Assembly (NCBI GenBank): GCA_036679545.1
Contig: JAZDDD010000758.1
Coordinates: forward strand, 1-33,156
DNA length: 33,156 bases
Direction: 5' to 3'
Source of the DNA: Gemmatimonadota bacterium
GTDB taxonomy: Bacteria > Gemmatimonadota > Gemmatimonadetes > Gemmatimonadales > GWC2-71-9
Below are positions 2 through 28,150 of the stretch, in pieces; positions within the stretch are counted from its first letter, which is position 1, and each line of letters begins with the position of its first letter. A program made the translations under genes and the position numbers. The notes under the pieces are model-generated. The model was not told where the DNA came from. It worked only from the letters and a program-made list of their open reading frames with translations, and searched no databases.

Positions 2-262
2 ACCATTACGGGCCCGTGTTACTACGGCATCAACACACCCACCCGCGGCGAACTCATCGCAGCAAACCACACTGTCGAAGAGATCCGGGAGCACCTGAAC
101 GTCGAAAGCCTCGGATATCTCTCCCTCGAGGGCACCCATGAGGCCATAAATAGGGGTCGGTCCGGATTTTGCGATGCATGCTTTTCCGGCGACTATCCGA
201 CGGCCATACCCAAAGATGCCGCCACCAAAGCGGAAGAAGAAATTCCTCTCACAGTTCAATAG
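2..262 (+). CDS. purF: Amidophosphoribosyltransferase, C-terminal fragment (gene starts left of the window)
   Basis: Frame 2 is open from the window edge: TITGPCYYGINTPTRGELIAANHTVEEIREHLNVESLGYLSLEG...GFCDACFSGDYPTAIPKD...TVQ, with stop TAG at 260-262. This fits the conserved PurF C-terminus (CFYGID..ELIA...EIR...LS.EG...C.ACF.G.YPT). It is absent from the ORF track because no start lies in the window. Confidence 0.75.
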   Translation, partial: TITGPCYYGINTPTRGELIAANHTVEEIREHLNVESLGYLSLEGTHEAINRGRSGFCDACFSGDYPTAIPKDAATKAEEEIPLTVQ

Positions 263-313
263 ACGGGTGCTCTGGCCGGATGCCGGAACGCCTCGACAAA
301 CAAGGCGATTTCC

Positions 314-3034
314 ATGAAAACCGTCTTTTCCTTTGGAAACGGGCGCGCTGATGGCGGTGCCCATATGGCGGACATTTTGGGTGGCAAGGGTGCAAACCTG
401 GCCGAGATGTGCAACCTGGGCATACCGGTCCCACCCGGTTTTACGATCGCCACAGGGTTGTGTGGTGAGTACCTCGAGAAACAGAAGCTTCCCGAAGGTT
501 TAGATGGTGCTGTGCGCGATGCCATGGCTCAGCTCGAGCACGCTGCCAATCGTCGATTCGGCGATGAGAACGACCCCTTGCTTGTCTCAGTGCGCTCCGG
601 TGCCAGGGTTTCAATGCCCGGCATGATGGATACAATCCTCAACCTGGGACTCAATGACCGTACCGTCAGCGGCCTAGCCACCCAATCGGACAATCCACGA
701 TTCGCATTCGACTCGTACCGGCGATTTGTCCAGATGTACGGAGAAGTCGTGTTCGGCTTGAAGGGAGACGGTCATCACCCGGATCCCCTGGAACATGCAT
801 TAACCAAGGCAAAAGAACGACGCGGTGTGTCACGCGATATCGATTTAGAAGCTCACGACCTGCGGGACCTGGTTGCTGAGTTCAAAGAGATTATCAGAAC
901 GGACACCGGCGCGACCTTTCCCGACGACCCGTGGGATCAATTATGGGGTGCGGTGGAAGCAGTTTTCAAAAGTTGGCAGACCAAACGTGCAGTGAATTAC
1001 CGGCGCGTGCACGAAATACCAAACGATATCGGCACCGCCGTAAACATCGTGGCCATGGTGTATGGCAACATGGGCGAAGACTGCGGAACTGGGGTGGCTT
1101 TCACGAGGGACCCCTCGACCGGTGTGGCCAATTTGTTTGGTGAGTTCCTCACGAATGCGCAGGGTGAGGACGTGGTCGCCGGCAGGCGGGACCCGGAACC
1201 AATTGCCGCCATGGCAGACCGTCTGCCTGATGCTTATCGCGCGCTCGAAGACACCTGCACAAAGCTGGAGGACCACTTTAGGGACGCGCAGGATGTGGAA
1301 TTCACCGTCCAAAAGGGCCAGTTGTACATGCTGCAAACACGGACCGCCAAGCGCACGGCCCGCGCGGCTGTGCGCATTGCGGTAGAGATGGTGGCAGAGT
1401 CACGGATCGACCAGCGCGAAGCGTTGAGACGTGTCCAACCGGAGCAGCTCGACCAGCTGCTCCACCCCACGATTGACCCGCAGGCCACCTTGGACATCTT
1501 GGCCGTCGGATTACCGGCTTCGCCCGGAGCGGCCGTCGGTATGGTGGTTTTTGATGCGGACACGGCACAGACACGGTCGGAGGACGGAGACCCGGTCATT
1601 CTGGTTCGGCGCGAGACCAGCCCGGACGATTTTCATGGCATGGTCGCCGCAGAGGCCATCTTGACCCAGCGGGGAGGGATGACAAGCCACGCGGCCGTCG
1701 TGGCGCGAGGAATGGGTACACCGTGCGTGGCGGGATGTAAGGAAATCGACGTTCGAGGAAGTGAAAAACGTTTCCTCGTCGGTGAGAGCGAGTTCCGCGA
1801 AGGTGATTGGATCACGCTGGACGGTTCCACAGGCCGTGTCATTCGGGGCAAGGTACCTCTGGTAGAATCAAGCCTCGACGAAAATTTCGATCAGATTATG
1901 GCTTGGTCCGACCAGGTGCGAATGCTTCGCGTTCGTGCCAATGCGGACAATGCTGCAGACGCCGAGCGAGCGCGAAAATTCGGCGCAGAGGGTATAGGAC
2001 TCTGCCGCACCGAACACATGTTTTTCGACGGGGAACGCATCACGGCAATGCGTGAGATGATCCTCGCATCCGATCTCGAAGGCAGACGGAAGGCGCTTCG
2101 CAAACTGCTACCGATGCAACGCGGGGACTTCCGCGAAATGTTCGAGGTCATGGACGGACTTCCCGTCACCATTCGACTCCTCGATCCGCCACTCCATGAG
2201 TTCTTGCCCCACGACGATAGCGAATTGATCCCCCTCGCCAAGAGCCTAGGTGTGCCATTGGATCGGCTCCGGCACACAGTGTCGGTTTTGACAGAAACCA
2301 ACCCCATGCTTGGACATCGGGGGTGTCGACTCGGTATCACGTATCCCGAGATCACTGAGATGCAGGCGTGGGCCATAATTGAAGCGGCATGCGAGGCCGC
2401 CAGTGCCGGAATATCCGTGTTTCCGGAGATCATGATCCCACTCATTGCTACGGCGGAGGAACTGCGTCGCCAAGTGGCCGTGGTGCGCGACGTTGCCGAG
2501 CGGGTGTTCGCCGAACGTGATCAGCGCATAGAATATTTGGTCGGGACAATGATTGAATTACCGCGAGCCGCATTGACCGCGGATGAGATCGCCGAGGTCG
2601 CAGAATTTTTCTCGTTCGGCACGAACGATTTGACGCAGACGACGTTCGGGTTGTCGCGTGACGACGCTGGTCGATTCCTACCTACGTATGTGGAATCGGG
2701 CATCTTACCGGCGGATCCATTCCAGACACTTGATCGCGGCGGCGTCGGACGACTGGTTGGTGTGGGTGTGGGGCTCGGTCGGGAGCGGAATCCCAAGCTC
2801 AAGATTGGCATTTGCGGAGAACATGGCGGTGACCCAGAATCGATAAAGTTCTGTCATCACATCGGGCTCAACTACGTTTCGTGTTCTCCCTTTCGTATTC
2901 CGATTGCGCGATTGGCGGCTGCACACGCCGCCCTTGTAGAATCGGAGAAGGTGTGTAATTTACCAAAGAGGAATGACGTTGATGCAAACGGAAGTGTAGC
3001 GTCAATCCAACAGTCGGCGGTTGCCGGCGCGTAG
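314..3034 (+). CDS. ppdK: Pyruvate, phosphate dikinase
   Basis: 906-aa ORF with PPDK hallmarks: N-terminal LGGKGANLAEM, TRTAKRT, phospho-His loop GGMTSHAAVVARGMG, and PEP-utilising C-domain motifs CRTEHMFF and FFSFGTNDLTQ. Confidence 0.95.
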   Translation: MKTVFSFGNGRADGGAHMADILGGKGANLAEMCNLGIPVPPGFTIATGLCGEYLEKQKLPEGLDGAVRDAMAQLEHAANRRFGDENDPLLVSVRSGARVSMPGMMDTILNLGLNDRTVSGLATQSDNPRFAFDSYRRFVQMYGEVVFGLKGDGHHPDPLEHALTKAKERRGVSRDIDLEAHDLRDLVAEFKEIIRTDTGATFPDDPWDQLWGAVEAVFKSWQTKRAVNYRRVHEIPNDIGTAVNIVAMVYGNMGEDCGTGVAFTRDPSTGVANLFGEFLTNAQGEDVVAGRRDPEPIAAMADRLPDAYRALEDTCTKLEDHFRDAQDVEFTVQKGQLYMLQTRTAKRTARAAVRIAVEMVAESRIDQREALRRVQPEQLDQLLHPTIDPQATLDILAVGLPASPGAAVGMVVFDADTAQTRSEDGDPVILVRRETSPDDFHGMVAAEAILTQRGGMTSHAAVVARGMGTPCVAGCKEIDVRGSEKRFLVGESEFREGDWITLDGSTGRVIRGKVPLVESSLDENFDQIMAWSDQVRMLRVRANADNAADAERARKFGAEGIGLCRTEHMFFDGERITAMREMILASDLEGRRKALRKLLPMQRGDFREMFEVMDGLPVTIRLLDPPLHEFLPHDDSELIPLAKSLGVPLDRLRHTVSVLTETNPMLGHRGCRLGITYPEITEMQAWAIIEAACEAASAGISVFPEIMIPLIATAEELRRQVAVVRDVAERVFAERDQRIEYLVGTMIELPRAALTADEIAEVAEFFSFGTNDLTQTTFGLSRDDAGRFLPTYVESGILPADPFQTLDRGGVGRLVGVGVGLGRERNPKLKIGICGEHGGDPESIKFCHHIGLNYVSCSPFRIPIARLAAAHAALVESEKVCNLPKRNDVDANGSVASIQQSAVAGA

Positions 3035-3059
3035 ATTTTTGGTGGTAGACAAACGCGTT

Positions 3060-3064
3060 AGGAG
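3060..3064 (+). promoter_or_regulatory. Shine-Dalgarno (AGGAG) for the small precursor ORF
   Basis: AGGAG lies 5 nt upstream of ATG 3070. This is the strongest SD I see in the accessory region. Confidence 0.6.
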
Positions 3065-3069
3065 AAATC

Positions 3070-3180
3070 ATGCAAGGACTGAAAAAACCATTCGTTAAGC
3101 CGACTGTCAAAGAGCAAGCTTCGCTGATCGACGTCACGCTGCAGACTGGCGGTGGTGGCGACGGTGGCGAAACACTCTAA
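3070..3180 (+). CDS. Putative RiPP precursor peptide (36 aa) with a lasso-type leader and a Gly-rich acidic core
   Basis: ATG..TAA reads MQGLKKPFVKPTVKEQASLIDVTLQTGGGGDGGETL. The ORF is below the ORF-track size cutoff. It has a strong SD and sits directly upstream of PqqD-like (RRE) and B2-protease genes. FxxPxV...Tx matches the spacing of the lasso leader motif YxxPxLxxxGxxxxxTx if cleavage follows Leu24. Confidence 0.6.
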   Translation: MQGLKKPFVKPTVKEQASLIDVTLQTGGGGDGGETL

Positions 3181-3201
3181 CATTTAGATTGTAACCACCA
3201 A

Positions 3202-3241
3202 AGCGTGCCAGGGGCGTCAAAGACCCTGGCACGCTTTTTTG
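3202..3241 (+). terminator. Rho-independent terminator/attenuator after the precursor ORF
   Basis: Perfect 12-bp stem AGCGTGCCAGGG (3202-3213) / CCCTGGCACGCT (3224-3235), a 10-nt loop, then a T-run (3235-3240). Confidence 0.8.
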
Positions 3242-3251
3242 CACCTAACTC

Positions 3252-4172
3252 TTGTCTATCACCCGATTTCAAGTCAACGCGGATGACGCACGCATCCGTC
3301 AAACCGTCCAATCATGGTTGGACGGCTTGCGGCTTGAATTGCCCGCGCCCATCACGCTTGACATAACGCGGGGGTTCGTTCCCTCTCCGATCGAAGCAGG
3401 CAGGACAATCTTCGAACAACCGGCCGTTACGATTTCGCACGGTCCACCGTCGTATGATTTGCGTGTCGCGTGGCGTCTTGCACCGGCGTGCGCAACCTTA
3501 CCAAAAGATTCGACGCAAATTCACATCGCCATCTCCGATAGCGGCGCTCAGCGGCTCGATGATTTCCTGAACACATTTCTTATTACGGTGATCATTCTGT
3601 CCTTGCGTCGGGTTGGATGGCACCATGTCCACGCTGCATCGGCTGAAGATCCGTCGGGGAGGGGATGGCTGATCGCAGGAGACGCGCGGGCTGGAAAGTC
3701 CACAACGGCGGCCCTCATGGCCAGCCGGGGTTGGCGCGTGGGTTCAGATGACACGACGTTTCTGGCGCGTGACAACGGGGCATTTTGCGCATGGAGCACG
3801 AGACAACCGTTGGCGCTCCGGCGGGGCGGACACACCCTTTTGGGTGACAACCAGTTCAAACGGAACACGCGAAGGAATAAATTCGTATGTTGGCCGGAAC
3901 AACTCGGTGGCAGCTGGACCAACCGCATCGTACCAGACATCATCTTGTTCTCAAAACCGGGAGCGCGCGTCACGACATGCGAACCCATCAAACCAATTGA
4001 GGCTCTGGCGGAACTTGTCCGTTGGTCGGCTTGGGTGATGCTCGAACCCGACTTGGCCCAAAACCATCTGGATCTGTTGAATACTATCGCACAACGCACC
4101 ACAAGCTACCGGGCGCAACTCGGCAGCGATCTTTTTCAAGATCCAACCCGGTTGTCAGCGATTCTGCCATGA
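3252..4172 (+). CDS. HPr kinase/phosphorylase-like (HprK C-domain-like) putative RiPP kinase
   Basis: 306-aa ORF. LIAGDARAGKSTTAALMASRGWRVGSDD matches the HprK P-loop block (G.SG.GKSE.AL.L..RGH.L.ADD). The start is TTG 3252, right after an in-frame TAA with no obvious SD; in-frame TTGs at 3318, 3327 and 3339 are alternatives. The stop overlaps the next start (ATGA). Confidence 0.75.
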   Translation: MSITRFQVNADDARIRQTVQSWLDGLRLELPAPITLDITRGFVPSPIEAGRTIFEQPAVTISHGPPSYDLRVAWRLAPACATLPKDSTQIHIAISDSGAQRLDDFLNTFLITVIILSLRRVGWHHVHAASAEDPSGRGWLIAGDARAGKSTTAALMASRGWRVGSDDTTFLARDNGAFCAWSTRQPLALRRGGHTLLGDNQFKRNTRRNKFVCWPEQLGGSWTNRIVPDIILFSKPGARVTTCEPIKPIEALAELVRWSAWVMLEPDLAQNHLDLLNTIAQRTTSYRAQLGSDLFQDPTRLSAILP

Positions 4173-4444
4173 CCGCTACCTACGTTTGCAGCCCGGACAT
4201 TCGAATAACCGAATTGGATGGCGAAGGCATTGTGCTCCATCTGGCAAACCGTCGTTACTTCACGGTGAGTAGCAGTGGCCTTTTAATACTGAGCGCGTTG
4301 AAGACACAACAAACATTTGACCACGTGGTCGATATCTTGTTGGGGACGTATGACGTAAACCGGGAAGAGGCGTCGGAAACCGCGACCACCTTCCTCGCCG
4401 AATGTGCGGCGCATGGGATGGTGGTTGTAGAGAAACACCCGTGA
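4169..4444 (+). CDS. PqqD-family RiPP recognition element protein (lasso B1-like)
   Basis: 91 aa: MTATYVCSPDIRITELDGEGIVLHLANRRYFTVSSSGLLILSALKTQQTFDHVVDILLGTYDVNREEASETATTFLAECAAHGMVVVEKHP. Size and pattern fit PqqD/RRE (..e.vl......yf.ln..g..i...l....t...iv..l...y.v....a..d...Fl..l...g.v). ATG 4169 overlaps the kinase stop (ATGA). I replaced the track's longer 4022 start. Confidence 0.75.
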   Translation: MTATYVCSPDIRITELDGEGIVLHLANRRYFTVSSSGLLILSALKTQQTFDHVVDILLGTYDVNREEASETATTFLAECAAHGMVVVEKHP

Positions 4445-4899
4445 CCGCGCTACCACTCGGCTGGCGGTGTCGAGCGGCGGTGGCCTGCCTGGTTGTCCCG
4501 ATCATGGTCAACAGCATCTCCTTCGCGACCGTCGTGCGACGGCTAGCGCAACGGCCCTCAAAACGTTTTGTACGATTCGACGATGAAGACTTGGCAGGAT
4601 GGGTCACCACGTTCCTCCATCGTCTGCCAGATCCGTGGTATCCCACGTGTCTTCGCCGCGCGGCCGTCTTATACCACCTCCTCAACCGCGCCGGTCGTGA
4701 CGTACGCATGTACCTCGGCGTACAACGGCCGGACACCGGTGAGATCGACGCTCATGCGTGGCTCGTCCTGAACGATGAACCCTATCTGGAGCCTTCCACT
4801 ACAGATCCCAGCCAGTACAAAGTCATCGCTCGCTTTCCCGAGGAGTCACCGGAGGATGGCGACGAACGAGAGGCAACCCTCAAGCCAAAGGGAGTTTGA
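4441..4899 (+). CDS. Transglutaminase-like cysteine protease (lasso leader peptidase B2-like)
   Basis: 152 aa from GTG 4441, which overlaps the PqqD stop (GTGA). Candidate Cys-His-Asp arrangement: YPTCLRRAAVLYHLL ... IDAHAWLVLNDEPY, as in lasso B/B2 proteins. Confidence 0.75.
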   Translation: MTALPLGWRCRAAVACLVVPIMVNSISFATVVRRLAQRPSKRFVRFDDEDLAGWVTTFLHRLPDPWYPTCLRRAAVLYHLLNRAGRDVRMYLGVQRPDTGEIDAHAWLVLNDEPYLEPSTTDPSQYKVIARFPEESPEDGDEREATLKPKGV

Positions 4900-4903
4900 T
4901 ATC

Positions 4904-5999
4904 GTGGTGCCGGTCCATACGGCACAACTTCTACTCGACACCCTTCGGCTTCCCGGGGTGTCCCACTCAGCCTCACTTTGCACAAGATGGGAGCGTGCAG
5001 ATACACGCGGTGTGACGGACCTCGTCAAACGCGAAGGCGGCGAACTTTGGTTGCACCGTCGCTTGAAACAAATCGGGATCCGTGAAACACGGTTGGTACG
5101 CACGGAGTTTTGGGACTCATTGGATCGCTCCGCCAAGAAAAGCGTAGCACAGAACCTACTCGTTCGCAGCCACGCCGAATACGTCAGGGGCCTGTTCGTG
5201 CGGGATGGCGTGCCGCACGCGCCGATCAAGGGCATCGCACGTCAAGCATGCACTCCCCAAATTCCCGTTTGCCAATTGCCGCGCTACGCGCGACGTGGAT
5301 ATTCTCGTACCATCTGACGCCACTGACGCCGCCTGGGAATGCCTAACATCACATGGATACCGGAAGTCAAGCGAGCTTACACCCACTGGGCATTTTCATC
5401 TCCCCCCGCTGGCAAACAACGAGAACATCGCCGTAGAGATACACAAGTCTACATCATCGTCCGTGTCACCCGATGAGGCGTGGCGACGTGCTCAGCATAT
5501 CGATGACCCGACCGAGTTACTCTGGCAGGGTGTTACGCACGCCTTGGATCAAGGGTTGGAAGGGTTCTTTCTTCGGTACTATCTGGATGCCGCAGTCGCC
5601 TTAACGCACGGCGACATTTCTTGGGAGGTCGTCGTGGAGAGGCTGCGGTCCGTTGAAATCCGCGACTATTCCCTGGCCGTCACCTGGTTGCTCGCAGCCA
5701 ATTGTTTTACGACAACGGACATCTCCAACACCATTGAACTACCGCAGCGAGATTTTCCTCTACTCCGGACCAGCACGTGGCGACTGACAGCCTATAGGTC
5801 GCGTTTCCGCAATAAGTCATGGACCCGCAAACTTCTCGCCGAGGGCTTGCGATCGGAATTGGACATGGGACTTGAAGGCCCGGTCCCGTCCACGCCCTTC
5901 GTGCACAAAGTCCGAAGAACCACGTCTGCGGTTGCAGCGCGATTGACATACCGCACATGGAGACGTCTTCGCTGGACGGATGACGCGGACTCAGCCTAG
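4904..5999 (+). pseudogene. NTP_transf_5-type nucleotidyltransferase family protein, interrupted by a 1-nt frameshift near 5246-5261
   Basis: Two track ORFs (4775-5317 and 5205-5999) are halves of one protein. Frame A ends ...FVRDGVPHAPIKGIARQA. Frame B continues ...LPKFPFANCRATRDVDILVPSDATDAAWECLTSHGY, the KG...R..D.D.LV....a...L...GY core of this family. The joined length is about 364 aa. The likely start is GTG 4904, with GGAG 9 nt upstream and 4 nt after the B2 stop. ATG 4856 is an alternative. Confidence 0.6.
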
Positions 6000-6884
6000 G
6001 ACACTCACCAGTGCCTCGTGAAGCGTAGCACTGGCAAACCGGTAGCCGGTGTCGAGCAAAACTCTTGGCGCAACGTTTTGACTCACAAACATCAGCTCGT
6101 CGGCCATCTCGCCAAGCGCCAGCCGTAACGGGAACGCCGGCACCGGCAAGACCGTGGGCCTCCGCAGCACTTTTCCAAGTTCACGCGTAAATTCGCTGTT
6201 GGTTACTGTGTGAGGTGCAACACAATTGACTGGTCCAGACATGTGCTCGTGTTCGAGAAGGAAACAGCACGTTTTGACCATATCCTCCAGTGTCAACCAA
6301 CTCATGACCTGCTCGCCGGTTCCGAGGCGTCCACCCAATCCCAGTTTGAACGGTAGGAGCAACCTGGAAAGAAGGCCGCCATGCCGAGCCAGTACCAATC
6401 CCGTGCGCAGAAACACCGTGCGGGTTCCTGCGTGGGATGCAGCTGACGCAGCATCTTCCCACTGGGCGCAGAGGGTCGCAAGAAACCCCGTTCCCCGTGA
6501 CGACTGTTCGGTCAGTATCTCATTTGGGCGATGGCCGTAATAGCCAATCGCGGATGCTTGTAAAAGTGTTCGTGGGGCGTCCCGGCAGGTACCAATCGTT
6601 CCCGCCAGCAGACGAGTTGTGGTCAGTCGGCTTTCACGCAGCGTGGTCTTTCGCGATGGTGTCCATGGCCAGCCGGCAATGCTCGCCCCCGATAGATTGA
6701 CGACTGCATCGGCGCCCTCAAGGACCTGCGAATCCAACTGACCGTTGTATGGATCCCACCAGGCCGTGTCATCATCCCGCGGGCTTCCGCGCACGAGCCT
6801 GACAACGTCGTGCCCGACCGCTCGCAACTTGTGCACAAGGGCCGTACCAACCAAACCAGATGATCCGGAAATGACGACACGCAT
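5991..6884 (-). CDS. TIGR01777/YfcH-like epimerase-family SDR protein (NAD-binding Rossmann domain plus DUF1731-type C-terminus)
   Basis: MRVVISGSSGLVGTALVHKLRAVGHDVVRLVR...ADAVVNLSGASIAG..W....K..L..SRL..T..L resembles YfcH-type proteins. I prefer ATG 6884; GTG 6893 and TTG 6890 are upstream in frame. Confidence 0.85.
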   Translation of the reverse strand: MRVVISGSSGLVGTALVHKLRAVGHDVVRLVRGSPRDDDTAWWDPYNGQLDSQVLEGADAVVNLSGASIAGWPWTPSRKTTLRESRLTTTRLLAGTIGTCRDAPRTLLQASAIGYYGHRPNEILTEQSSRGTGFLATLCAQWEDAASAASHAGTRTVFLRTGLVLARHGGLLSRLLLPFKLGLGGRLGTGEQVMSWLTLEDMVKTCCFLLEHEHMSGPVNCVAPHTVTNSEFTRELGKVLRRPTVLPVPAFPLRLALGEMADELMFVSQNVAPRVLLDTGYRFASATLHEALVSVLG

Positions 6885-6886
6885 AA

Positions 6887-7103
6887 TCAACACTCAACAT
6901 TCAACACTCAACTCTGAACGTCCAGCGATCTGCCATACTCAACTCGGAACGTCCAGCGATCTGCCATACTCAACTCGGAACGTCCGGCGATCTACGATAC
7001 CCGACTCTGAACGTCCGGCGATCTACGATATTCAACTCTGAACGTCCAGCGATCTACCAGATCGTTGGACGTTGAGAGTTGAGTGTTGGGCGTTCAGTGT
7101 TGA
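6887..7103. repeat. Composite repeat element: about 45-nt imperfect terminal inverted repeats, TCAACAY heptads, and five tandem 31-nt units
   Basis: Tandem units lie at 6906-6936, 6937-6967, 6968-6998, 6999-7029 and 7030-7060, with consensus ACTCAACTCKGAACGTCCRGCGATCTRCSAT. The left end 6887-6931 (TCAACACTCAACATTCAACACTCAACTCTGAACGTCCAGCGATCT) matches the reverse complement of 7059-7103 at 39 of 45 positions by my hand alignment. Confidence 0.9.
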
Positions 7104-7107
7104 ATAG

Positions 7108-7465
7108 TGGAGGCGCGGGGAATCGAACCCCGGTCCGAACCTCAATCTGAGGCCGCGTCTACGTGCGTAGGTCACGCTTAATGTCTCCGCCGGCTGGTGC
7201 GTAACCTACCGAACCAACGGACAATCATCCTAAAGCTTGAATCGTCCGCAGATGAGGACGAACGACAGCAGCCTAAATTTTCAATACTCACCCGCCGCCT
7301 TAGGCGAGCTGCAGAGTGAGCAGGTGCAGCAAGCTAATTAAAGCTTACGCAGCCAATGCCAGATCAGTGTTGGCAATTGTGATGTTTCCGGTGTTTTTTA
7401 CCAGGGCACCAGATCCTGGACACGCAGCAACCACGTCACGAGACCCGTCGAAACCAGTCGCCCCC
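7108..7465 (-). ncRNA. ssrA: tmRNA (transfer-messenger RNA)
   Basis: The reverse complement begins GGGGGCGACTGGTTTCGACGGG and ends GGGGTTCGATTCCCCGCGCCTCCA, a tRNA-Ala-like acceptor with G3:U and a T-arm GGTTCGATTCC. An internal tag ORF ends LAA. Only the first C of CCA is encoded (7107). Confidence 0.9.
7345..7374 (-). other. tmRNA tag-peptide reading frame (ANTDLALAA, then stop)
   Basis: Within ssrA: GCC AAC ACT GAT CTG GCA TTG GCT GCG TAA. It has the canonical Ala resume codon and C-terminal ALAA degron. The exact resume codon is inferred. Confidence 0.65.
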
Positions 7466-7589
7466 AAAAAAACTACTTTTGGGTGCCTGGCGCGAAACGC
7501 GACAGTGCTAACTATATAATATACCAGAGTTTACGTTTTGTTCCAGGGCACACGGCGTGCAGTTTTTCCAGCCCTACCCCGCTAGGGGC

Positions 7590-8573
7590 CTACACGACGG
7601 CTCGAACAGGGTCGAGATAGCTGCTGAACAGCGCTTCAATCTGGGACATGGCCTCAATGCCGTATAGTCGTTGGCGCAGCTGGCCCGCCCCGGGGAGGCC
7701 CCGGGTGTACCACCCAAGATGTTTCCGAAACTCGATTGCCGTGCGACGAGAATCGCCTTGGATTTCCCGCGCGAGCTGGGCGTGGCGCAAGGCGACCTGG
7801 AAGCGTTCCGCGGCCCCCGGAGTGGACCTGGGGTGGCCTCCCTCTAAGAGTGCCCGCGTCTGTTGGAATATCCAGGGATTCCCGAACGACCCGCGCGCGA
7901 TCATCAACCCCGCACACTGCGTGTGGCGCCACAATCTGATCGCATCCTCCGCGGTTTTGATATCGCCATTCCCGATTACGGGGATCGTCAGAGCATCCAC
8001 CACTTGTGCGATTTCGTCCCAATTGGCATTGCCGTTGTACATCTGGGTTCGTGTCCGTGGATGGAGCGTGAGGACCAACACGCCAGCGTCCTCGCAGGCC
8101 AACGCAATCTCGACGGGGTTACGCTGTTCTTCATTCCACCCGCTCCGGATTTTTGCGGTGACAGGCAGATGTGTAGCCTTCTTTACCTCGATCACGATAC
8201 GTTGTAACAACGTGAGATCCTTGAGACACCCGGACCCGCCGTTACGCCGGACGACCTTTTTGACCGGACAACCGAAATTGATATCGATGAAATCCGGGTC
8301 GTAATATTGGGTGACGAGTGCGGCCGCTTCCGCCATGCCCGTGGGGTCGGCACCATACAACTGTATGCCGATTGGGCGTTCCCGCTCGGTGAAATAAGCA
8401 CCGTCATGTGTGCTCTTCACACCCCTGCGAAGACCCTCACAGGACAAAAACTCGGACACGACCACATCAGCCCCAAACATTCGGCAAATACGCCGGAAAG
8501 GCGGTTCTGACACGCCGGCCATGGGCGCGAGGAATAGCGGGACCGTGTGATCCACTGGATAGGGAAACCGCAT
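7590..8573 (-). CDS. dusB: tRNA-dihydrouridine synthase
   Basis: 327 aa with LAPMAGVSEPPFRRI, the catalytic-Cys block DINFGCPVKKV, and TLHPRTR, typical of the Dus family. The DusB subtype assignment is tentative. Confidence 0.85.
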   Translation of the reverse strand: MRFPYPVDHTVPLFLAPMAGVSEPPFRRICRMFGADVVVSEFLSCEGLRRGVKSTHDGAYFTERERPIGIQLYGADPTGMAEAAALVTQYYDPDFIDINFGCPVKKVVRRNGGSGCLKDLTLLQRIVIEVKKATHLPVTAKIRSGWNEEQRNPVEIALACEDAGVLVLTLHPRTRTQMYNGNANWDEIAQVVDALTIPVIGNGDIKTAEDAIRLWRHTQCAGLMIARGSFGNPWIFQQTRALLEGGHPRSTPGAAERFQVALRHAQLAREIQGDSRRTAIEFRKHLGWYTRGLPGAGQLRQRLYGIEAMSQIEALFSSYLDPVRAVV

Positions 8574-8684
8574 TACGCGAACTTAATTGAGGTCAAACGG
8601 AGCAGCAACGGCGGCGTTTGACAGTCCATACGAGGTGTCATACGTTTCGGGCCGTTTTGTCAAACACCGTCACACGAAAAGCAC

Positions 8685-9137
8685 ATGCGCCTACGAGATT
8701 GTTTTACGCAAGAAACCGTCAACCTCGACCTCCAGGGGGTCGAGAAAGATGACGTACTCCAAGAGCTAATTCGCGTCTTCGGTTTGGACGAGAAATCAGA
8801 AGGCATGTTGTTCAAGATGCTTCAACGCAGGGAAAATCTGGGATCCACCGGTATCGGTCGGGGCATTGCCATTCCACACTGCCGGTCATTGGTCGTCAAC
8901 CGCCTACGTGTGGCATTTGGCCGCAAATCGTCCGGTCTGGACTTCAAGGCCATTGACCACAAGCCGGTACACAACATCTTCCTCATCGTGGCTCCGCCGA
9001 TGGAAGTGTCCAATCAGTACCTGCCCGTGTTGGGTCGTATCGCCCAATTCGCAAAGGAGGCCGATGTGCCGGATCGACTCGCCACGTTGGAAACACCAGA
9101 AGGATTCCTATCGCTCTTAGAAGAAAAAGATATCTAA
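8685..9137 (+). CDS. ptsN: PTS EIIA type-2 domain protein (PtsN/EIIA-Ntr-like)
   Basis: 150 aa. The phosphorylatable-His block STGIGRGIAIPHCR and the later IFLIVAP segment are typical of EIIA(Ntr/Fru) domains. Confidence 0.75.
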   Translation: MRLRDCFTQETVNLDLQGVEKDDVLQELIRVFGLDEKSEGMLFKMLQRRENLGSTGIGRGIAIPHCRSLVVNRLRVAFGRKSSGLDFKAIDHKPVHNIFLIVAPPMEVSNQYLPVLGRIAQFAKEADVPDRLATLETPEGFLSLLEEKDI

Positions 9138-9138
9138 A

Positions 9139-10692
9139 TTACTCCCACTCGATCGTGGCCGGTGGCTTCGAACTGATGTCGTACACGACTCTGTTTACCC
9201 CCGCAACTTCATTGATGATTCGATTGGCCATCCTACCCAATACGGCGGCTGGGAAATCGAACCAATCAGCCGTCATGCCGTCCGTACTGGTAACCGCTCG
9301 TAGGGCCACGACATTCTCGTAGGTGCGGGCGTCCCCCATCACACCAACCGACTGGACGGGGAGCAGCACAGCAAACGCCTGCCAGATTTCATCATACAGA
9401 TCCGCATTCCGAATCTCCTCGAGGTAGATGGCATCGGCCTTCCGCAGCGTTGTCACCGCCTCGGGTGTCACCTCGCCGATGATTCGTATTGCCAGACCTG
9501 GACCGGGAAATGGGTGTCGACCAACAATATCCTCCGGGAGTCCAAGCTCGCGACCAACTCTCCGTACCTCATCCTTGAAGAGTTCGCGGAGTGGTTCAAT
9601 CAATTCGAACGGAAGATCGGGGCGTAAACCACCGACGTTGTGATGCGTTTTGATTGTGGCAGAGGGTCCACCACGCGGCGACAACGACTCGATGACATCG
9701 GGATAAAGGGTCCCTTGCACCAAGAATTCGACATCGCCATCGACTTGGCCGGCTGCTTCTTCGAAGACATCGATGAACGAATGGCCGATTCGCCGTCGCT
9801 TTTCCTCCGGGTCTTTGACACCGGCCAATCGGTCAAGGAATCGTTCACTGGCATCGACGACAATGAGTTCGGCTCCCAGCTCTGATCCGAAAGTTGCTTC
9901 GACTTGTTCTCGTTCGTTGAGTCGCAGCAGTCCGTGATCGACAAAGATACATGTCAGACGATCTCCAACAGCTCGGTGTACCAGCGCTGCCGCGACGGCG
10001 GAATCCACACCGCCAGACAAACCACAGATAACTCGCTGGTTCTTGCCAACCCGATTCTGAATCTGCTCTATGTGCTCCGAAACAAAATGACCCGACGTCC
10101 AGTCGGTTGGAGCATTGCAGATGTTGCGAACAAAGTTGCCCAAAACCTCCGTCCCTCGCTCAGTATGGGCAACTTCCGGGTGAAATTGTACCGCATACAC
10201 CTTCCGCTTCATATCCGCGAAGGCGGCTATGGGAGCGTTGTCGCTGGACGCGAGCACCTGCATCCCACGAGGTAACCCCTGTACCGTGTCGGCATGGCTC
10301 ATCCAAACATTCAACGAGTCACCAACAGCGAAACCGCCGAACAAACCGTCGGCGTGCTGAATATCGACACGTGCGCGGCCGTATTCGCGTTCCTTTGACG
10401 CGCGAACTTCAACCCCAAGCCCTTGCGCCAGAAGCTGCATGCCATAACACACGCCCAAGATCGGCACACCAAGTGTGAGCAGTTCGGAATTGAACTTGGG
10501 CGCGTCGTGATCGTACACCGAACTCGGCCCACCTGATAAGATGATTCCTGCGGGCGCGCGTTCCTCGATCCATGACCGGTCTCGGTCGGGCCGTTGAATG
10601 TCGCAAAATACTTCCATCTCGCGGATGCGGCGCGCAATCAGTTGCGTGAACTGCGATCCGTAATCGAGAATCAGTATTCCTTTATGTGTCAA
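9139..10692 (-). CDS. guaA: GMP synthase (glutamine-hydrolysing)
   Basis: 517 aa. GATase block [12 protein letters not shown]-pyrophosphatase motif [11 protein letters not shown]-terminus [13 protein letters not shown] start 10692 has AGGAG 9 nt upstream. Confidence 0.95.
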
Positions 10693-10728
10693 GTCGAACA
10701 GCTCCTAAATTCGTACGGGGTGAATGTC

Positions 10729-11991
10729 TCAGTCATCCATCCAAATTGGTGTCACGCTCTCATCTCTCCACAGGTCATCCAGCTTTTCACGCCGCCGGAT
10801 GATACCAAACCGCGTATTGTCCACCAATACTTCGGCTGCGCGTGGCCGCGAGTTGTACGTGGAACTCATTGAAAACCCGTATGCACCGGCGCCACGTATT
10901 GCCAGTAAACCACCCGCACCAACCGGTTCGAGAAGCCGATCTAACGCTTGATAGTCGCCGCTTTCGCAAATCGGCCCGACCACATCGACTCTGCCGGGTT
11001 CCGCATCCCGATGCACATCTCCAGAGCTCACAACATCGATATCGTGGAAGGCCTGATATAACATCGGACGCATGAAATCGTTCATCCCCGCATCGACGAT
11101 CAAGAAGGAGTGGTCACTCGCCGATTTCCGATACACCACACGAGTGAGCAAGACACCTGCGTTTCCGATGATGAGGCGTCCAGGTTCAATGAGCAGCCGG
11201 AGTCCGGTTCGTTTCAACATCGGTGCCACGCCGGCCGCAAGCGCATGAAGGTCCAACGCGTTTGTATCGCCATGTGATACGGCAAAGCCACCGCCAATGT
11301 CCAGACTCTCCAGCGTGTCGATGCCATGACTCCGGATGGCATCGACAAGGTTGCACAGGCGTGCCGCACCGGTTTGGTAAGATGTCGGGTCGGTGATTTG
11401 CGATCCCAAATGCATTCCCACACCGCACAACCGTATACGTGGGGTCTGCGCCATTCGCACGGCCAGTTGCTCAGCACGGTGGAGCGGCACCCCAAACTTC
11501 ATTCCTTTGTGTCCGGTCTGCGTATGCGGATGCGTGTCGGTTGTCACATCTGGGTTAACACGAATGCCAACTCGCACGAGCTTCCCAAGTCTGGCCGCCA
11601 CCGCGCTGAGGGCATCGAACTCCACCTCTGACTCGACATTCACAAGACCGACATCGGCCGTCAAAGCACCTTCTAACTCGGATGCGGTTTTACCGACGCC
11701 GCTAAACACGATGTCCGGACCGGAGAAACCCGCGCGCAGAACTCTGGCAAGCTCACCACCAGACACAATGTCAACACCGGCACCCAAGTCTCGCAAAAGA
11801 CCTAGAATCGCGAGGTTGCTATTGGCCTTTACGGAGTAGTGAACGCGGTGCGACACAGCCGCCACTGCGTCTGCCAGTGCCGTCCACTGATGTCTGATGG
11901 CCGCGGCGCTGTAAACGTATGTCGGTGTGCCGACAACTTGGGCAACGCGTTCGAAAACCGCGTTTGAGACGCCTAGTAGGCTTTCGCCCAC
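10729..11991 (-). CDS. lysA: Diaminopimelate decarboxylase
   Basis: 420 aa. GTPTYVYS, PLP-lysine block HYSVKAN, DIGGGF, and CESGD are typical of LysA. GTG start; 19-nt overlap with the proS 3' end. Confidence 0.9.
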   Translation of the reverse strand: MGESLLGVSNAVFERVAQVVGTPTYVYSAAAIRHQWTALADAVAAVSHRVHYSVKANSNLAILGLLRDLGAGVDIVSGGELARVLRAGFSGPDIVFSGVGKTASELEGALTADVGLVNVESEVEFDALSAVAARLGKLVRVGIRVNPDVTTDTHPHTQTGHKGMKFGVPLHRAEQLAVRMAQTPRIRLCGVGMHLGSQITDPTSYQTGAARLCNLVDAIRSHGIDTLESLDIGGGFAVSHGDTNALDLHALAAGVAPMLKRTGLRLLIEPGRLIIGNAGVLLTRVVYRKSASDHSFLIVDAGMNDFMRPMLYQAFHDIDVVSSGDVHRDAEPGRVDVVGPICESGDYQALDRLLEPVGAGGLLAIRGAGAYGFSMSSTYNSRPRAAEVLVDNTRFGIIRRREKLDDLWRDESVTPIWMDD

Positions 11992-13418
11992 ACCGCCTCA
12001 GTGACTGCAGCTTCTCCGCACCACGTACACTTTGTGGGAGCGGGACTCGTGGCGAATTCTTCATCCGGGAGCACCCGAATGGTCGCTTTTGTTTGGTCCT
12101 TTACCGCTGTCTCGCAAGCTGGCGATCCACAGTAACCACCAAACGCAAACCCGCCGGTCCCGTTCATCAAATCGATCAATTCGTCTTTCGTAACGTTGCG
12201 CCGAGAATTCTTCTCGCGTCGGGCCCTGGCGGTTTCCAGCAAACTCCGTTGCACTTGATCCAGCGCTGCCCGCACGGCTTCCCCTAACACGTCGATGCGC
12301 GCCGGTACCTTACCCCCCGTGCGACGAGCCAGAACCGCCTGTCCTTCCGACACGTCTCGCGGACCAATTTCCAGTCGAACGGGCACCCCGCGAACTTCCC
12401 ACTCGTAATATTTGGCACCGGGCTTCATACCCTCGCGATCGTCGACGCGGACACGCATTCCACTACCGGCCAATTGTTCGCGTACGGACTCAGATACTTG
12501 GAGCACGGCCTGGCGATCGGTATCCGTCTTCCAAATCGGTACGATCACCACCTGAAGTGGAGCAAGCTTTGGCGGGCATATCATGCCGCGGTCATCACCA
12601 TGAGACATGATGAGTCCGCCAATGAGCCGTGTGGATACTCCCCACGAGGTGCTCCACACATATTCCAAACCACCATCGGCCGTTTGGTATTGCACATCGA
12701 ACGCTTTTGCAAAATTCTGACCGAGATGGTGCGACGTGCCAGCTTGCAGTGCCTTGTTGTCCTGCATCAACCCCTCGCACGAGTACGTCCGTACCGCGCC
12801 AGCGAATCGTTCCGCGTCAGTTTTTACACCGGTGATCACCGGCATGGCCATCCATTCTTCCATGAACCGCCGATAGATTCCCAAAATCAAACGGGCCTCC
12901 GCCTCGGCCTCGTCATCGGTGGCGTGCGCCGTGTGTCCCTCTTGCCAGAGAAATTCGGTCGTTCGCAAAAACAATCGTGTCCTGAGTTCCCACCGGACCA
13001 CGTTCGCCCATTGGTTGATGAGCAACGGTAAATCACGGTAGCTCTGGATCCACTTGGAAAACATGGCGTAGATGATTGTCTCCGACGTGGGTCGAATCAC
13101 CAATGGTTCCTCCAGCTCCTTGCCGCCTCCACGCGTCACAACCGCAGTTTCCGGCGCGAAGCCCTCGACGTGTTCGGCCTCTTTGGCCAGAAATTTCTCA
13201 GGTATGAGCAACGGGAAGTACGCGTTCTCGTGACCGGTTTCTTTGAACATTGCATCCAGGTTCTGCTGCATCAGTTCCCAAATACCATATCCACCCGGCC
13301 GAATCACCATGCAACCGCGTACCGGCGAGTGGTCCGCCAATTGCGCTCGGATGACAACATCGTTGTACCACGCTGAGAAGTCTTCGTCGCGAGGTGTTAT
13401 TCCCTTAGTATTGCTCAT
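11973..13418 (-). CDS. proS: Proline--tRNA ligase (archaeal/eukaryote-like type)
   Basis: 481 aa with class II aaRS motifs and a C-terminal Cys-rich tail (GGYCGSPACE...CTWCGE) ending in Tyr. ATG 13418 overlaps the hisS stop (ATGA). Confidence 0.95.
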   Translation of the reverse strand: MSNTKGITPRDEDFSAWYNDVVIRAQLADHSPVRGCMVIRPGGYGIWELMQQNLDAMFKETGHENAYFPLLIPEKFLAKEAEHVEGFAPETAVVTRGGGKELEEPLVIRPTSETIIYAMFSKWIQSYRDLPLLINQWANVVRWELRTRLFLRTTEFLWQEGHTAHATDDEAEAEARLILGIYRRFMEEWMAMPVITGVKTDAERFAGAVRTYSCEGLMQDNKALQAGTSHHLGQNFAKAFDVQYQTADGGLEYVWSTSWGVSTRLIGGLIMSHGDDRGMICPPKLAPLQVVIVPIWKTDTDRQAVLQVSESVREQLAGSGMRVRVDDREGMKPGAKYYEWEVRGVPVRLEIGPRDVSEGQAVLARRTGGKVPARIDVLGEAVRAALDQVQRSLLETARARREKNSRRNVTKDELIDLMNGTGGFAFGGYCGSPACETAVKDQTKATIRVLPDEEFATSPAPTKCTWCGEAAVTEAVWAKAY

Positions 13419-14749
13419 ACGTTATCCCGTGCCCCAACCACTTCACGTACCCAGTTGCGGTTGTTTCCGTTAGCAAAAAGTTCAACGATTTTGTCGAGAG
13501 TGATCCGTTGTTCCTCACCCGTCGTGAGATTGCGCACAACGCCCAGCTCGTTCTCGCGCTCCTCCGGCCCAATGATGACGGCCGCTGTAGCCTGCCGCGC
13601 ATTGGCGATTTTCATCTGTTTCCCGATGGATTGCGGTTTAAGGGCATACTCCACGCGCGCTCCCCGATCACGCAGACTGTGTGCCAACGATAGCACCGTC
13701 CGGATCTCGCCTCCCGTGACTGCCACGAGAAACATGTCCAAACCGCCAGCTCCGTCTGCTGTCCAACCATGTTCCTTCAACAGTTCGCCGAGAACGACGT
13801 CACCCATGCCAAATCCAACGGCGGGTAGATCGACACCACCCAACGCGTTCAACAACCCATCATACCTTCCACCCCCGCAAATGGCGCGGAGAGACCGGCG
13901 GGCATCGAAAAGCTCGAACACGATGCCGGTGTAATAGTCCAGTCCACGAACTATTGACAGATCCACATCGACAAAGTCCCTCAACCCCATCGACGCGAGG
14001 GCGTCCAGACATTGAAACAAGTTATCTGACGCGGCCTCTTTGTCGGCGGCGGACAACGCTTCGCGAAGAGCGGCTTCTCCCTTGATCCCACCGATTTCCA
14101 GCACCTGCTGCGCGACAACTTGCTCGAGCCCCCCCTGGACCAGGAAGGCGAGCAGCTTGTCCGGTGTTTCTCGCTCCGACTTGTCCACCGCCCGGTATGC
14201 CAACTCTAACTGAGCCGCCTGAACGCCATTGGCAAGCAACAAGGCCTGGATCACACGTCGATCCGACATGCGGACCCGTACGTCCTTGGGTCCAAGGCCA
14301 AGCGTTCTCATGATGTCTATGGCGGCCGCTATCACCTCTGCGTCCGCAGCAGCCCCTACTTCTCCTATCACATCCATGTTCAACTGGAAGTGCTCTCGGA
14401 GACGCCCACGCTGTTGCTTCTCGAACCTGAACAGCTGTGGAGTCGAGAACCATCGGATGGGCTTTTTCAGCTCGGTGGCCCTCGCGGTGACCATCCGGGC
14501 CAGCGTTGGGGTCATCTCGGGACGTAACGTGACTGCCCGGTCACCCTTGTCCACGAAATTGTAGAGCTGATCGACGATCTCAGGACCCGACTTTTGGGTG
14601 TAAAGCTCGAGGGGCTCCAGGGGCGGACCGTCATATTCCTGAAACCCGTATCGCGCGGCTACGTCCCGCCACGCGCCAAAGATCGCGTTCTTGAGAGCAA
14701 TCTTCTCTGCGTCAAAGTCTCGAAATCCCGGCAACCCCCGTGTTTTCAT
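13415..14749 (-). CDS. hisS: Histidine--tRNA ligase
   Basis: 444 aa. GFRDF, LRPEMTP, FRFEKQQRGRLREHFQ and GGGRYD are HisRS signature blocks. Confidence 0.95.
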   Translation of the reverse strand: MKTRGLPGFRDFDAEKIALKNAIFGAWRDVAARYGFQEYDGPPLEPLELYTQKSGPEIVDQLYNFVDKGDRAVTLRPEMTPTLARMVTARATELKKPIRWFSTPQLFRFEKQQRGRLREHFQLNMDVIGEVGAAADAEVIAAAIDIMRTLGLGPKDVRVRMSDRRVIQALLLANGVQAAQLELAYRAVDKSERETPDKLLAFLVQGGLEQVVAQQVLEIGGIKGEAALREALSAADKEAASDNLFQCLDALASMGLRDFVDVDLSIVRGLDYYTGIVFELFDARRSLRAICGGGRYDGLLNALGGVDLPAVGFGMGDVVLGELLKEHGWTADGAGGLDMFLVAVTGGEIRTVLSLAHSLRDRGARVEYALKPQSIGKQMKIANARQATAAVIIGPEERENELGVVRNLTTGEEQRITLDKIVELFANGNNRNWVREVVGARDNV

Positions 14750-27287: not shown

Positions 27288-28150
27288 ATGGCTCTCGACC
27301 CCGAAGAACTCCTACAAATCACCCTGGCGGGCCTCACCTTGGAGCGTTTCGTGGGGCACGGTCGGTTCGCCTGGGTTTATCTCGCCCGCAATCAGGACGA
27401 CGGTCATCCCGTAGCCGTAAAAGTCCTCGCGCCCAGCTACGCGGGTGAATCGGAATTCGAAGGTCGCTTCCGCAACGAGGCGGAAACCGCCTCGCGGCTC
27501 GATCACACACACATCATTCGCATCAGGCACATTGGCGCAGAGTCTGGCTTGACGTTTCTGGTGATGGACTACTATCCGGATTCACTTGCCAATCGTGTCG
27601 GCAAGAACGGCGTTGGACCGTCCGAAGACTTCCTCACTCAGGTGGCGGACGATATTGCGGGCGCGCTTGCGTTTGCTCACGACGCCGACATCGTGCATCG
27701 AGACATTAAGCCGGACAATATCCTCCTCGCCGGGCCGTGCTGGCCGATTTCGGCATAGCAAAAGCTATGTCCGCGCTTGTGAGTGGAACGGGCGCCAACA
27801 TGACAATTGGAACCCCGCACTATCTGTCACCCGAACAGGCCCAGGGTCTGAAAATCGACGGCCGAAGCGATCTCTACTCGCTTGGCGTGACACTCTATAG
27901 AGCCGCCACGGGGGCCCTGCCATTCCGATCTGTCGATTGGTTTGAACTAGCCCGAATGCACGTCGAGGATCCTCCCATCCGCCCAACACAAATCCGACCG
28001 GATCTGAGCAGTCACCTCGAAAATATCATCCTGACCTTGTTGGCGAAGTCACCGGAGGACCGCTATCCGACCGCAACCGCTCTGCGACAGGACATCAGAC
28101 GAATCCGCGCGCTACGACAGGCCACCGAAGCGACCCGTACTCCGCGATAG
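27288..28150 (+). pseudogene. Hanks-type Ser/Thr protein kinase (kinase domain only), split by a frameshift just before the DFG motif
   Basis: ORF 27288-27758 carries the Gly-loop VGHGRFAWVY, VAVKVL and HRDIKPDNILLAG, then a stop. ORF 27737-28150, in the -1 frame, continues (A)VLADFGIAKAM...GTPHYLSPEQ...DLYSLGVTLY. Together they make one kinase domain of about 287 aa. Confidence 0.75.

Follow-up and report, generated by a model that had tools for sequence, protein, structure and literature searches.

The stretch of DNA analysed here, called the window below, comprises 33,156 nucleotides of contig JAZDDD010000758.1 in the assembly GCA_036679545.1 of a Gemmatimonadota bacterium. Positions 3070–5999 of its forward strand carry five genes resembling those for ribosomally synthesized peptides with post-translational modifications (RiPPs), in particular those of lasso peptide clusters: a precursor gene A, a gene K for an HPrK-like kinase, a gene B1 for a RiPP recognition element (RRE) of the PqqD family, a gene B2 for a lasso-type protease and a gene N for a protein of the NTP_transf_5 family. 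A first-pass annotation, made from the sequence alone, had placed five co-directional elements here, closed on both sides by housekeeping genes, and had seen neither an Asn synthetase nor an ATP-binding cassette (ABC) transporter in the window. Re-reading of the sequence gives the same coordinates, overlaps, GGAG motif and GTG start for all five, and Pfam scans of the long open reading frames (ORFs) agree with the rest of this description.

Gene A (3070–3180, forward strand as all that follow) is an ORF of 36 amino acids (aa), MQGLKKPFVKPTVKEQASLIDVTLQTGGGGDGGETL, which is also recognized by a profile hidden Markov model (HMM) of the leader. A Shine–Dalgarno-like AGGAG, read from the sequence, is located at 3060–3064, 5 nt 5' of its ATG. 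Gene K (3252–4172) codes for 306 aa from a TTG start. Gene B1 (4169–4444; 91 aa) begins with an ATG that overlaps the stop codon of K (ATGA, 4169–4172), and gene B2 (4441–4899; 152 aa) with a GTG that overlaps the stop codon of B1 (GTGA, 4441–4444); an alternative in-frame ATG for B2 is present at 4402. The gap between the stop codon of B2 (4897–4899) and the GTG start of N at 4904 is 4 nt, and a GGAG is found at 4891–4894. N (4904–5999), the product of which has a nucleotidyltransferase fold, carries a +1 frameshift and is read in two frames, 4904–5317 and 5205–5999.

The family names first proposed for B1, B2 and N were recovered by profile searches. B1 matches Pfam PqqD (PF05402; E = 1.2e-9) and two NCBIfam models of lasso PqqD chaperones (3.7e-10 for lasso_PqqD_Bac and 1.4e-7), both below the curated cut-offs. 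B2 matches Transglut_core3 (PF13471; 2.3e-14) and reaches 51.9 bits against the model NF033537 (lasso_biosyn_B2), the cut-off of which is 33. Its residues Cys70, His105 and Glu117 show no variation among 40 homologues; Glu117 is located 12 residues past His105, at a position where canonical B proteins carry Asp. For N, only the 3' frame (5205–5999) gives a match, to profile positions 86–245 of NTP_transf_5 (PF14907; 1.7e-11). A structural model of N, with a predicted local distance difference test score (pLDDT) of 92.7, resembles Pol-beta-type nucleotidyltransferases (Cid1, FKRP and ANT(2'')-Ia) at the level of the fold only (Foldseek E >= 0.1).

Library HMMs match K weakly and in the P-loop region (GDARAGKSTTAALMASRGWRVGSDD) only: Hpr_kinase_C at 0.0096, HprK_rel_A at 5e-5 and ScmC at 2e-5. 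The score against PF07475 is 15.9 bits (cut-off 33.3), matches to the curated HprK models fall well short of the respective cut-offs, and the homologues of K carry a precomputed match to Pfam PF27840, 'ScmC'. However, a profile of 32 homologues aligns with the kinases of lasso clusters over 226 columns (hhalign probability 99.1%, E = 7e-19), the sequence relatives in the PDB are HprK/P proteins only (E = 0.04, P-loop region), and the best PDB matches of the AlphaFold (AF2) model (pLDDT 91.1) are phosphoenolpyruvate carboxykinase (PEPCK) and HPrK/P (Foldseek). Because these three approaches agree, the HPrK-like assignment is firm despite the weak library matches. All 49 positions without variation in the alignment of the 32 homologues are preserved in K, among them G148-K149-S150-T151 and the pair D166-D167, which corresponds to D158/D159 of the pseudomycoidin kinase PsmK. 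A defence-system reading was dropped, since PADLOC gave only a marginal match in the P-loop (mad8, E = 0.0013).

The upstream neighbour of the cassette is ppdK and the downstream neighbour is a convergent Epimerase/DUF1731 (yfcH-like) gene. According to the Pfam scans, the other long ORFs of the 33-kb window represent housekeeping families only (ppdK, epimerase/DUF1731, Dus, PTS-IIA, GuaA, LysA-like, Mur ligase, AccD, RodA, PBP2, MreBCD, Ald, M16 peptidase, PNPase, RseP, Dxr, CdsA, UppS and Frr), and neither an Asn_synthase domain nor an ABC transporter was found among them. Exact-sequence look-ups of the window B1, B2 and yfcH, and of P0002, returned no record.

Recurrence and selection of the cassette in Gemmatimonadota

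There are at least 293 homologues of K in a large protein collection, nearly all of about 305 aa and 45–60% identical. A scan of every representative protein gave 43 cluster representatives of the K family at E <= 1e-30, then a clear gap, and below it the broader superfamily of HprK-like proteins (1434 at 1e-10 and 4785 at 1e-3). We compiled 56 related loci, extending 10 kb on each side of K, from annotated contigs and from a kinase scan of one genome per species; all 49 loci contributed by the genome scan belong to Gemmatimonadota. By tBLASTn, the order K-B1-B2-N is found in nearly every one of the 56 loci where the contig allows. Clustering of all ORFs revealed that K, B1, B2 and N are the only universally conserved genes, an ABC-2 pair and a DUF4097 gene being present in some of the loci. 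The flanks are divided into 14 upstream and 10 downstream groups, and this diversity indicates that the cassette is a self-contained module. One locus, L001 (62% kinase identity), shares the synteny of the window: ppdK, a 36-aa ORF, K, B1, B2, an intact N of 374 aa, yfcH, dus and ptsN. The recurrence of a cyclase-less cassette with a conserved small ORF, which the first-pass annotation had proposed to look for in relatives, is thus observed in the 56 related loci.

A closer relative, L008, from the Gemmatimonadota metagenome-assembled genome (MAG) LQ971M_Bin_17, is collinear with window positions 2–14171 at about 91% nucleotide identity. The ratio of non-synonymous to synonymous substitution rates (dN/dS) between the two is 0.06 for A, 0.03 for K, 0.03 for B1, 0.19 for B2, and 0.16 and 0.09 for the 5' and 3' parts of N; for comparison, it is 0.07 for ppdK. 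Since the small ORF is kept in 56 distinct versions and is under purifying selection, the A-K-B1-B2-N arrangement is far beyond chance.

The frameshift in N, noticed in the first-pass annotation, is present in the sequence. Whereas N is a single intact ORF of 364 aa in L008, the window has one extra C in a CCCC run at about 5252–5255, and the removal of one C restores a protein of 364 aa. In the intact relatives P0273 and L008, N has 364–374 aa, and its K-G, D-V-D and E/H residues are invariant. The shift separates the pair K109-G110, on its 5' side, from D130-V131-D132 and E178/H180, on its 3' side; if real, it inactivates N.

It is unlikely, in our estimate, that the window copy is a decaying or inactive remnant, with a genuine frameshift in N and a cassette that is being lost from the lineage. 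The separation of K109-G110 from D130-x-D132 would agree with such decay, as would the partial copies in loci L023, L019 and L026, the stop in K together with a split N in L033, and the split N of L010. However, the change concerns a single base in a C4 homopolymer, no other stop is found in either half of N, and dN/dS is 0.09–0.16 across N and 0.03–0.19 in the other genes. Moreover, N is intact in both L008 (91% nucleotide identity) and L001, and A, K, B1 and B2 are intact even without N. A second gene of the window, coding for a Ser/Thr protein kinase, is split as well and could point to assembly errors, though its break is not in a homopolymer. Because both halves of N remain open, are under purifying selection and are accompanied by this second split gene, the shift is either very recent or an assembly artefact. 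It is specific to this copy and may result from an assembly error. The remnant hypothesis of the first-pass annotation is therefore wrong for the family, the relatives being intact with dN/dS in the range given above, and applies at most to the N gene of the window copy. Programmed frameshifting was rejected, since the close relatives encode N in one frame.

The two parts of the Ser/Thr protein kinase gene are located at 27288–27758 and 27737–28150. The first stops just past HRDIKPDNILL and the second begins at the DFG motif; the junction, at about 27725–27745 (GCCGGGCCGTGCTGG), is no simple homopolymer.

Three loci contain partial cassettes with no detectable precursor, all of them between tRNA-Val(CAC) and tRNA-Met(CAT): K and B1 in L019 (2158–3765), K alone in L023 (9628–11012), and K and N in L026 (1567–4243). 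They may be remnants or represent a distinct K-only system. The MAG SMAG_U2494 holds a full cassette (L011) in addition to a partial one (L019). N is also split into two ORFs in L010 (5448–6669) and in L033 (9989–12686; complete MAG chromosome OZ252244.1). The kinase of L033 has an internal stop and H125 changed to Ala, and its precursor core, QFPQVSGIT, is devoid of Ser/Thr at position 2; this copy looks genuinely decaying.

Precursor peptides and the macrolactam cyclase

The window precursor is composed of a leader, residues 1–24 (MQGLKKPFVKPTVKEQASLIDVTL), and a predicted core, QTGGGGDGGETL. It matches the leader HMM, built from the relatives, at E = 1.5e-13, and its leader carries F(-17), P(-14), V(-12), A(-8), T(-2) and L(-1). 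One to three small precursor ORFs were found with this HMM directly 5' of K in almost every locus with upstream sequence. They represent 56 distinct sequences (E from 1e-7 to 1e-14), all of which have K/R(-20), L/V/I(-12), L(-6), T(-2) and L(-1). P(-14) is present in 55 of them, F(-17), E(-10) and A(-8) in 54 each (with Y at -17 in the remaining 2), S(-7) in 52 and P(-18) in 51. Lasso leaders have Gly at -8. Judged from these residues, the precursor leader is of the lasso pattern, with F replacing Y and A replacing G; the lasso motif consists of YxxPxL, spanning -17 to -12, together with a Thr at -2 (PMC10368454). From this pattern, B2 is predicted to cut the window peptide after Leu24.

The cores are 6–40 aa long (median 16) and contain 26% Gly and 12% Ser; the longer ones are rich in Arg, Asn and His. 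Their C-termini are unconserved. The sole conserved feature of the core is a Ser or Thr at position 2, present in 52/56 and usually followed by Gly-Gly. Asp or Glu is found at positions 7–9 in only 9/56; 36/56 have no acidic residue at all, and 13/56 are of 10 aa or less, for example QTSAVL, VSPPPV, LSNGGQPT and TSGGGGGGAT. Lacking the acid or being this short, most of the cores are unable to form a lasso.

The weaker kinase matches, in Acidobacteriota ('Acidiferrales'), Micromonospora and Vulcanimicrobiota, are located in canonical lasso clusters with the order PqqD, Transglut_core3, Asn_synthase/GATase_7 cyclase, precursor and kinase (B1-B2-C-A-K). One of their precursors, KKPYFTPVLTIYGTVRELTQ/TKGLRSTKDGG..., has a textbook leader and Asp9. 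In these three groups the cyclase adjoins K in every sufficiently long locus. A cyclase HMM built from 14 cyclases beside K homologues of other phyla recovers all 14; neither the window nor the 746 kb of the 56 related loci yielded a match at E <= 1. The case in which relatives always carry the cyclase and exporter genes C and D, envisaged in the first-pass annotation, is thus contradicted by a count of 0/56 for the cyclase.

A split lasso cluster, with C and D encoded elsewhere, had also been proposed; its product would be a phosphorylated lasso peptide of the usual kind. In its favour, position 7 of the window core QTGGGGDGGETL is occupied by Asp and lasso clusters are known from some Gemmatimonadota; the cyclase search covered the window and the 10-kb flanks. 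However, a seven-residue ring would leave a tail of five residues, not enough for threading, and the Asp is not kept even in the nearest clade, the sister-clade locus L001 having the acid-free core QTGGGGGGGEEL. Considering in addition the acid-free majority of the cores, the 13 very short ones, and the absence of a cyclase within 10 kb in 56 loci when it adjoins K in the lasso loci of other phyla, a split cluster is very unlikely.

Cyclase-less combinations were also observed outside Gemmatimonadota. In a deltaproteobacterial MAG (L064, 9583–11976), ETF and AFOR genes flank a set composed of PqqD, an HprK-like kinase and NTP_transf_5, and a cyanobacterial MAG (L061, 9740–13810) has an HprK-like kinase, an ABC exporter (ABC_membrane and ABC_tran) and NTP_transf_5. 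Neither a B2 nor a cyclase was found within these two loci.

The absence of an exporter, as first reported, holds for the window and not for the family as a whole. A Wzm/Wzt-type ABC-2 exporter pair abuts N in about 22/57 related loci (about 40%). It is convergent and adjoins or overlaps the stop codon of N, for example in L005 (12616–14594); the other loci include L013, L016, L021, L030, L036–L038, L040–L043, L046 and L052–L055. The pair consists of an ATPase with a Wzt_C domain and an ABC2_membrane permease, often followed by a DUF4097 gene, and its best NCBIfam matches are exporters of teichoic acid, galactan and O-antigen (TagH/Wzt and Wzm). It may be the dedicated exporter of long His/Arg-rich cores.

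Such long cores form a subfamily with (His-Gly)n or Arg/Asn/His-rich tails, often ending in Ser (...RRGHGHGHGHSS, ...HGHGHNS). The subfamily is found in L005 (9687–9920), L013, L016, L021, L028, L031, L034, L036, L042, L046 and L054. Its tails resemble metal-binding sequences, and the C-terminal Ser recalls the phospho-acceptor of the paeninodin type.

RNA folding revealed a hairpin resembling an intrinsic terminator between A and K (3201–3240, forward strand), with a 14-bp GC-rich stem followed by T6. Its folding energy is -28.8 kcal/mol (z = -5.3), and 0/200 shuffled sequences fold as well; a consensus terminator scan missed it. A hairpin with a T-run follows 19/57 precursor genes in the relatives. 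The element is likely an attenuator that sets the precursor-to-enzyme ratio, which fits the usual RiPP layout of plentiful precursor transcript and read-through into the enzyme genes.

Only 35 nt (3035–3069) separate the stop codon of ppdK from the ATG of the precursor gene, and the same tight junction is observed in L001 and L008. A consensus promoter scan gave no convincing promoter, and no sigma-70-like one in this gap. With a gap so short, the transcription start may be located within ppdK or farther upstream, which suggests that A probably shares a transcript with ppdK or has its promoter within the 3' end of that gene.

Comparison with lasso and linear polyphosphorylated peptide systems

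The pseudomycoidin cluster has the order psmC-A-K-B1-B2-N-D; PsmK adds one to three phosphates to a Ser of the precursor, and PsmN is required for the appearance of a hexose on the phosphorylated peptide (PMC6993621). The order A-K-B1-B2-N is that of psm minus C and D. In the Bsf system, the kinase BsfK acts on the precursor before processing and phosphorylates its core Ser3; this reaction is strongly stimulated by the RRE BsfB1, and B2 then removes the leader (PMC10368454). The Gemmatimonadota cassette resembles the paeninodin, pseudomycoidin and Bsf clusters in several respects: K is homologous to lasso-cluster kinases, B2 passes the curated lasso B2 model, the leader follows the lasso pattern, and the phosphorylation site in Bsf is an N-proximal core Ser (Ser3), close to the site predicted here. 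It differs from them in having neither an Asn-synthetase-like cyclase, in the window and in the 56 loci, nor a lasso-type ABC exporter, and in that most of its cores have no Asp/Glu at positions 7–9 and are too short. As two defining features, the cyclase and the acceptor acid, are missing, the cassette is not a lasso cluster.

A cyclase-independent pathway of this kind was considered undescribed in the first-pass annotation, which no longer holds: linear polyphosphorylated peptides (LPPs) of Bacillota were reported in May 2026 (Popov et al., Nat Commun; PMC13381572). The LPP cluster codes for the precursor LppA, the HprK-like kinase LppK, the RRE LppB, the SipW-like peptidase LppS, the pump LppD and the NTP-transferase LppN, and has no cyclase; the product is linear and polyphosphorylated on core Ser3 by LppK (PMC13381572). 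LPPs are stated to be restricted to Bacillota, and the paper does not mention Gemmatimonadota (PMC13381572).

The two systems share a lasso-like [Y/F]xxPx[V/L] leader, a free-standing RRE, a kinase resembling HprK, an NTP-transferase and the lack of a macrolactam cyclase, as well as one to three precursor genes, the products of which are conserved at the N-terminus and variable at the C-terminus. The LPP leader has the consensus YxxPxVLxHQxIxFETxxS, in which the final Ser is the phospho-acceptor (PMC13381572). Counted from the aromatic residue, the offsets are identical (P at +3, V/L at +5, T at +15 and S at +18), and correspond in Gemmatimonadota to F(-17), P(-14), L(-12), T(-2) and S/T(+2). 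Between these shared positions the sequences differ, with EEASLxxV in Gemmatimonadota and HQxIxFE in LPPs; the Gemmatimonadota consensus is PFVxPxLxEEASLxxVTL, with Phe for Tyr in 54/56.

Further differences concern the processing and the export of the peptides. The leader peptidase is B2 in Gemmatimonadota and a signal peptidase I of the archaeal type (the SipW-like LppS) in Bacillota; no signal-peptidase family was found in the window scans or among the called genes of L001–L007. The cut is predicted after T-x in Gemmatimonadota, whereas it occurs after T in LPPs. There is no MsbA-like exporter comparable to LppD; the window has none, and about 40% of the relatives have the Wzm/Wzt ABC-2 pair. 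The Gemmatimonadota cores are Gly-rich and shorter (6–40 aa, median 16, compared with 45 aa for LppA), and the phylum is different.

Two other groups of kinases were compared with K. It shares with HprK/P and PEPCK the P-loop GxxGxGKS[TS] followed by G-x-DD, and Foldseek places the model of K in this group; however, only about 50 residues align by sequence, so that the relationship is at the level of the fold, and the context and partners of K are those of a RiPP system and not of carbon catabolite control. The HprK-related kinases A/B and ScmC of SynChlorMet (TIGR04352, TIGR04355, TIGR04249 and PF27840) give the best library matches and have the P-loop kinase module in common with K. Nevertheless, K reaches 22–26 bits against cut-offs of 125–200 and is outside those equivalogs, and the corresponding systems have no B2 protease. 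We know of no published function for the HprK-related kinase A/B or ScmC families. Searches of the openly accessible literature gave nothing relevant on HprK-related or ScmC/SynChlorMet function, on cyclase-less lasso-like clusters or on PF14907, and no paper on the Gemmatimonadota cassette.

Proposed pathway and its significance

We interpret the locus as a complete and self-contained A-K-B1-B2-N RiPP cassette, derived from kinase-containing lasso clusters, which would work without a macrolactam cyclase and yield a linear phosphopeptide; we estimate the probability of this reading at roughly 0.6. Among the explanations put forward in the first-pass annotation, the cyclase-independent RiPP pathway is thus favoured, owing to the recurrence of the cassette without a cyclase and to the mostly non-macrolactam cores. 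The products are most likely short linear phosphorylated peptides, the Gemmatimonadota counterpart of the LPPs of Bacillota.

By analogy with the characterised systems, B1 would bind the FxxPxL motif in the leader of the 36-aa precursor, and K, recruited by B1, would phosphorylate, possibly more than once, the conserved Ser or Thr that is the second residue of the core (Thr26 of the window precursor). N could attach another group to this phosphate; the precedents point to a hexose or a phospho-sugar. B2 would cut after Thr(-2)-Leu(-1), i.e. after Leu24, and release a short linear Gly-rich phosphopeptide, here QT(P)GGGGDGGETL. If the frameshift in the window N is genuine, modification would not go beyond the phosphopeptide.

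Several observations weigh against this interpretation. Every chemical step is inferred: the order of events, the residue that accepts the phosphate and the reaction of N are all transferred from homologous systems that have been characterised. N carries a frameshift in the window copy, has no close solved relative (a profile search of the PDB gave no match), and was inactive in the heterologous LPP system (PMC13381572). Four of the 56 cores are devoid of Ser/Thr at position 2 and their kinases keep all catalytic residues, so that the Ser/Thr at this position is a putative acceptor. The window clade has no dedicated exporter. Finally, lasso clusters are present in 29/495 marine Gemmatimonadota MAGs (PMC11316326), and there is a small probability that a trans-acting cyclase is encoded elsewhere in the genome.

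A peptide cyclized or cross-linked by a non-canonical route might also be considered, for example through adenylation of the C-terminal carboxylate by N and head-to-tail closure, or through elimination of phosphate to give a dehydro-amino acid. The Pol-beta-type fold of N leaves room for this, and cleavage by B2 frees an N-terminal amine with which short Gly-rich cores would presumably close easily. We consider it highly improbable: there is no precedent among NTP_transf_5 enzymes, PsmN being linked to a hexose on the phosphate; the cores vary from 6 to 40 aa with unconserved C-termini; and the conserved gene set contains no lyase or cyclase domain.

Equally little speaks for the small ORF being a regulatory leader or a chance ORF, with the enzymes acting on a substrate such as a cell-surface polymer: the glycopolymer-type exporter next to about 22/57 loci and the frequent location of LPP and paeninodin clusters within capsule loci (PMC13381572) would suit such a role, but all 56 versions of the leader show conservation of the protein sequence, with an RRE-binding motif and the Thr(-2) recognized by B2 beside a hypervariable core, which is a RiPP signature, the dN/dS of the small ORF is 0.06, and B1 and B2 have no known role beyond leader binding and cutting.

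The preferred reading, a linear phosphopeptide cassette, places the LPP logic (RRE, HprK-like kinase, NTP-transferase and no cyclase) in another phylum and combines it with the ancestral lasso B2 protease. The cyclase-less principle is already known from LPPs; what is new here is a B2-dependent variant in a phylum where LPPs were unknown. As the same logic is found in a second phylum together with B2, cyclase loss seems to have occurred more than once. Tentatively, and with some doubt, we propose that Gemmatimonadota independently turned a phosphorylated-lasso cluster into a cyclase-free one while keeping B2. Its products would be linear phosphopeptides of 6–12 aa, or His/Arg/Gly-rich ones of up to 40 aa, perhaps phospho-glycosylated by N and perhaps exported via Wzm/Wzt, and this would represent a recurrent outcome in several phyla.

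B1 and B2 can evidently act as a general module for leader binding and removal outside lasso peptides. Genome-mining tools that require a cyclase will miss this family of cassettes. As a compact system of four enzymes with cores of 6–12 aa, the cassette is suited to working out the function of NTP_transf_5 proteins, and the 56 natural precursor variants constitute a resource for studying the substrate tolerance of K and B2. If the proposed pathway is true, linear phosphopeptide RiPPs would be a recurrent result of lasso-cluster evolution in multiple phyla, with a possible role at the cell surface, rather than a peculiarity of Bacillota.

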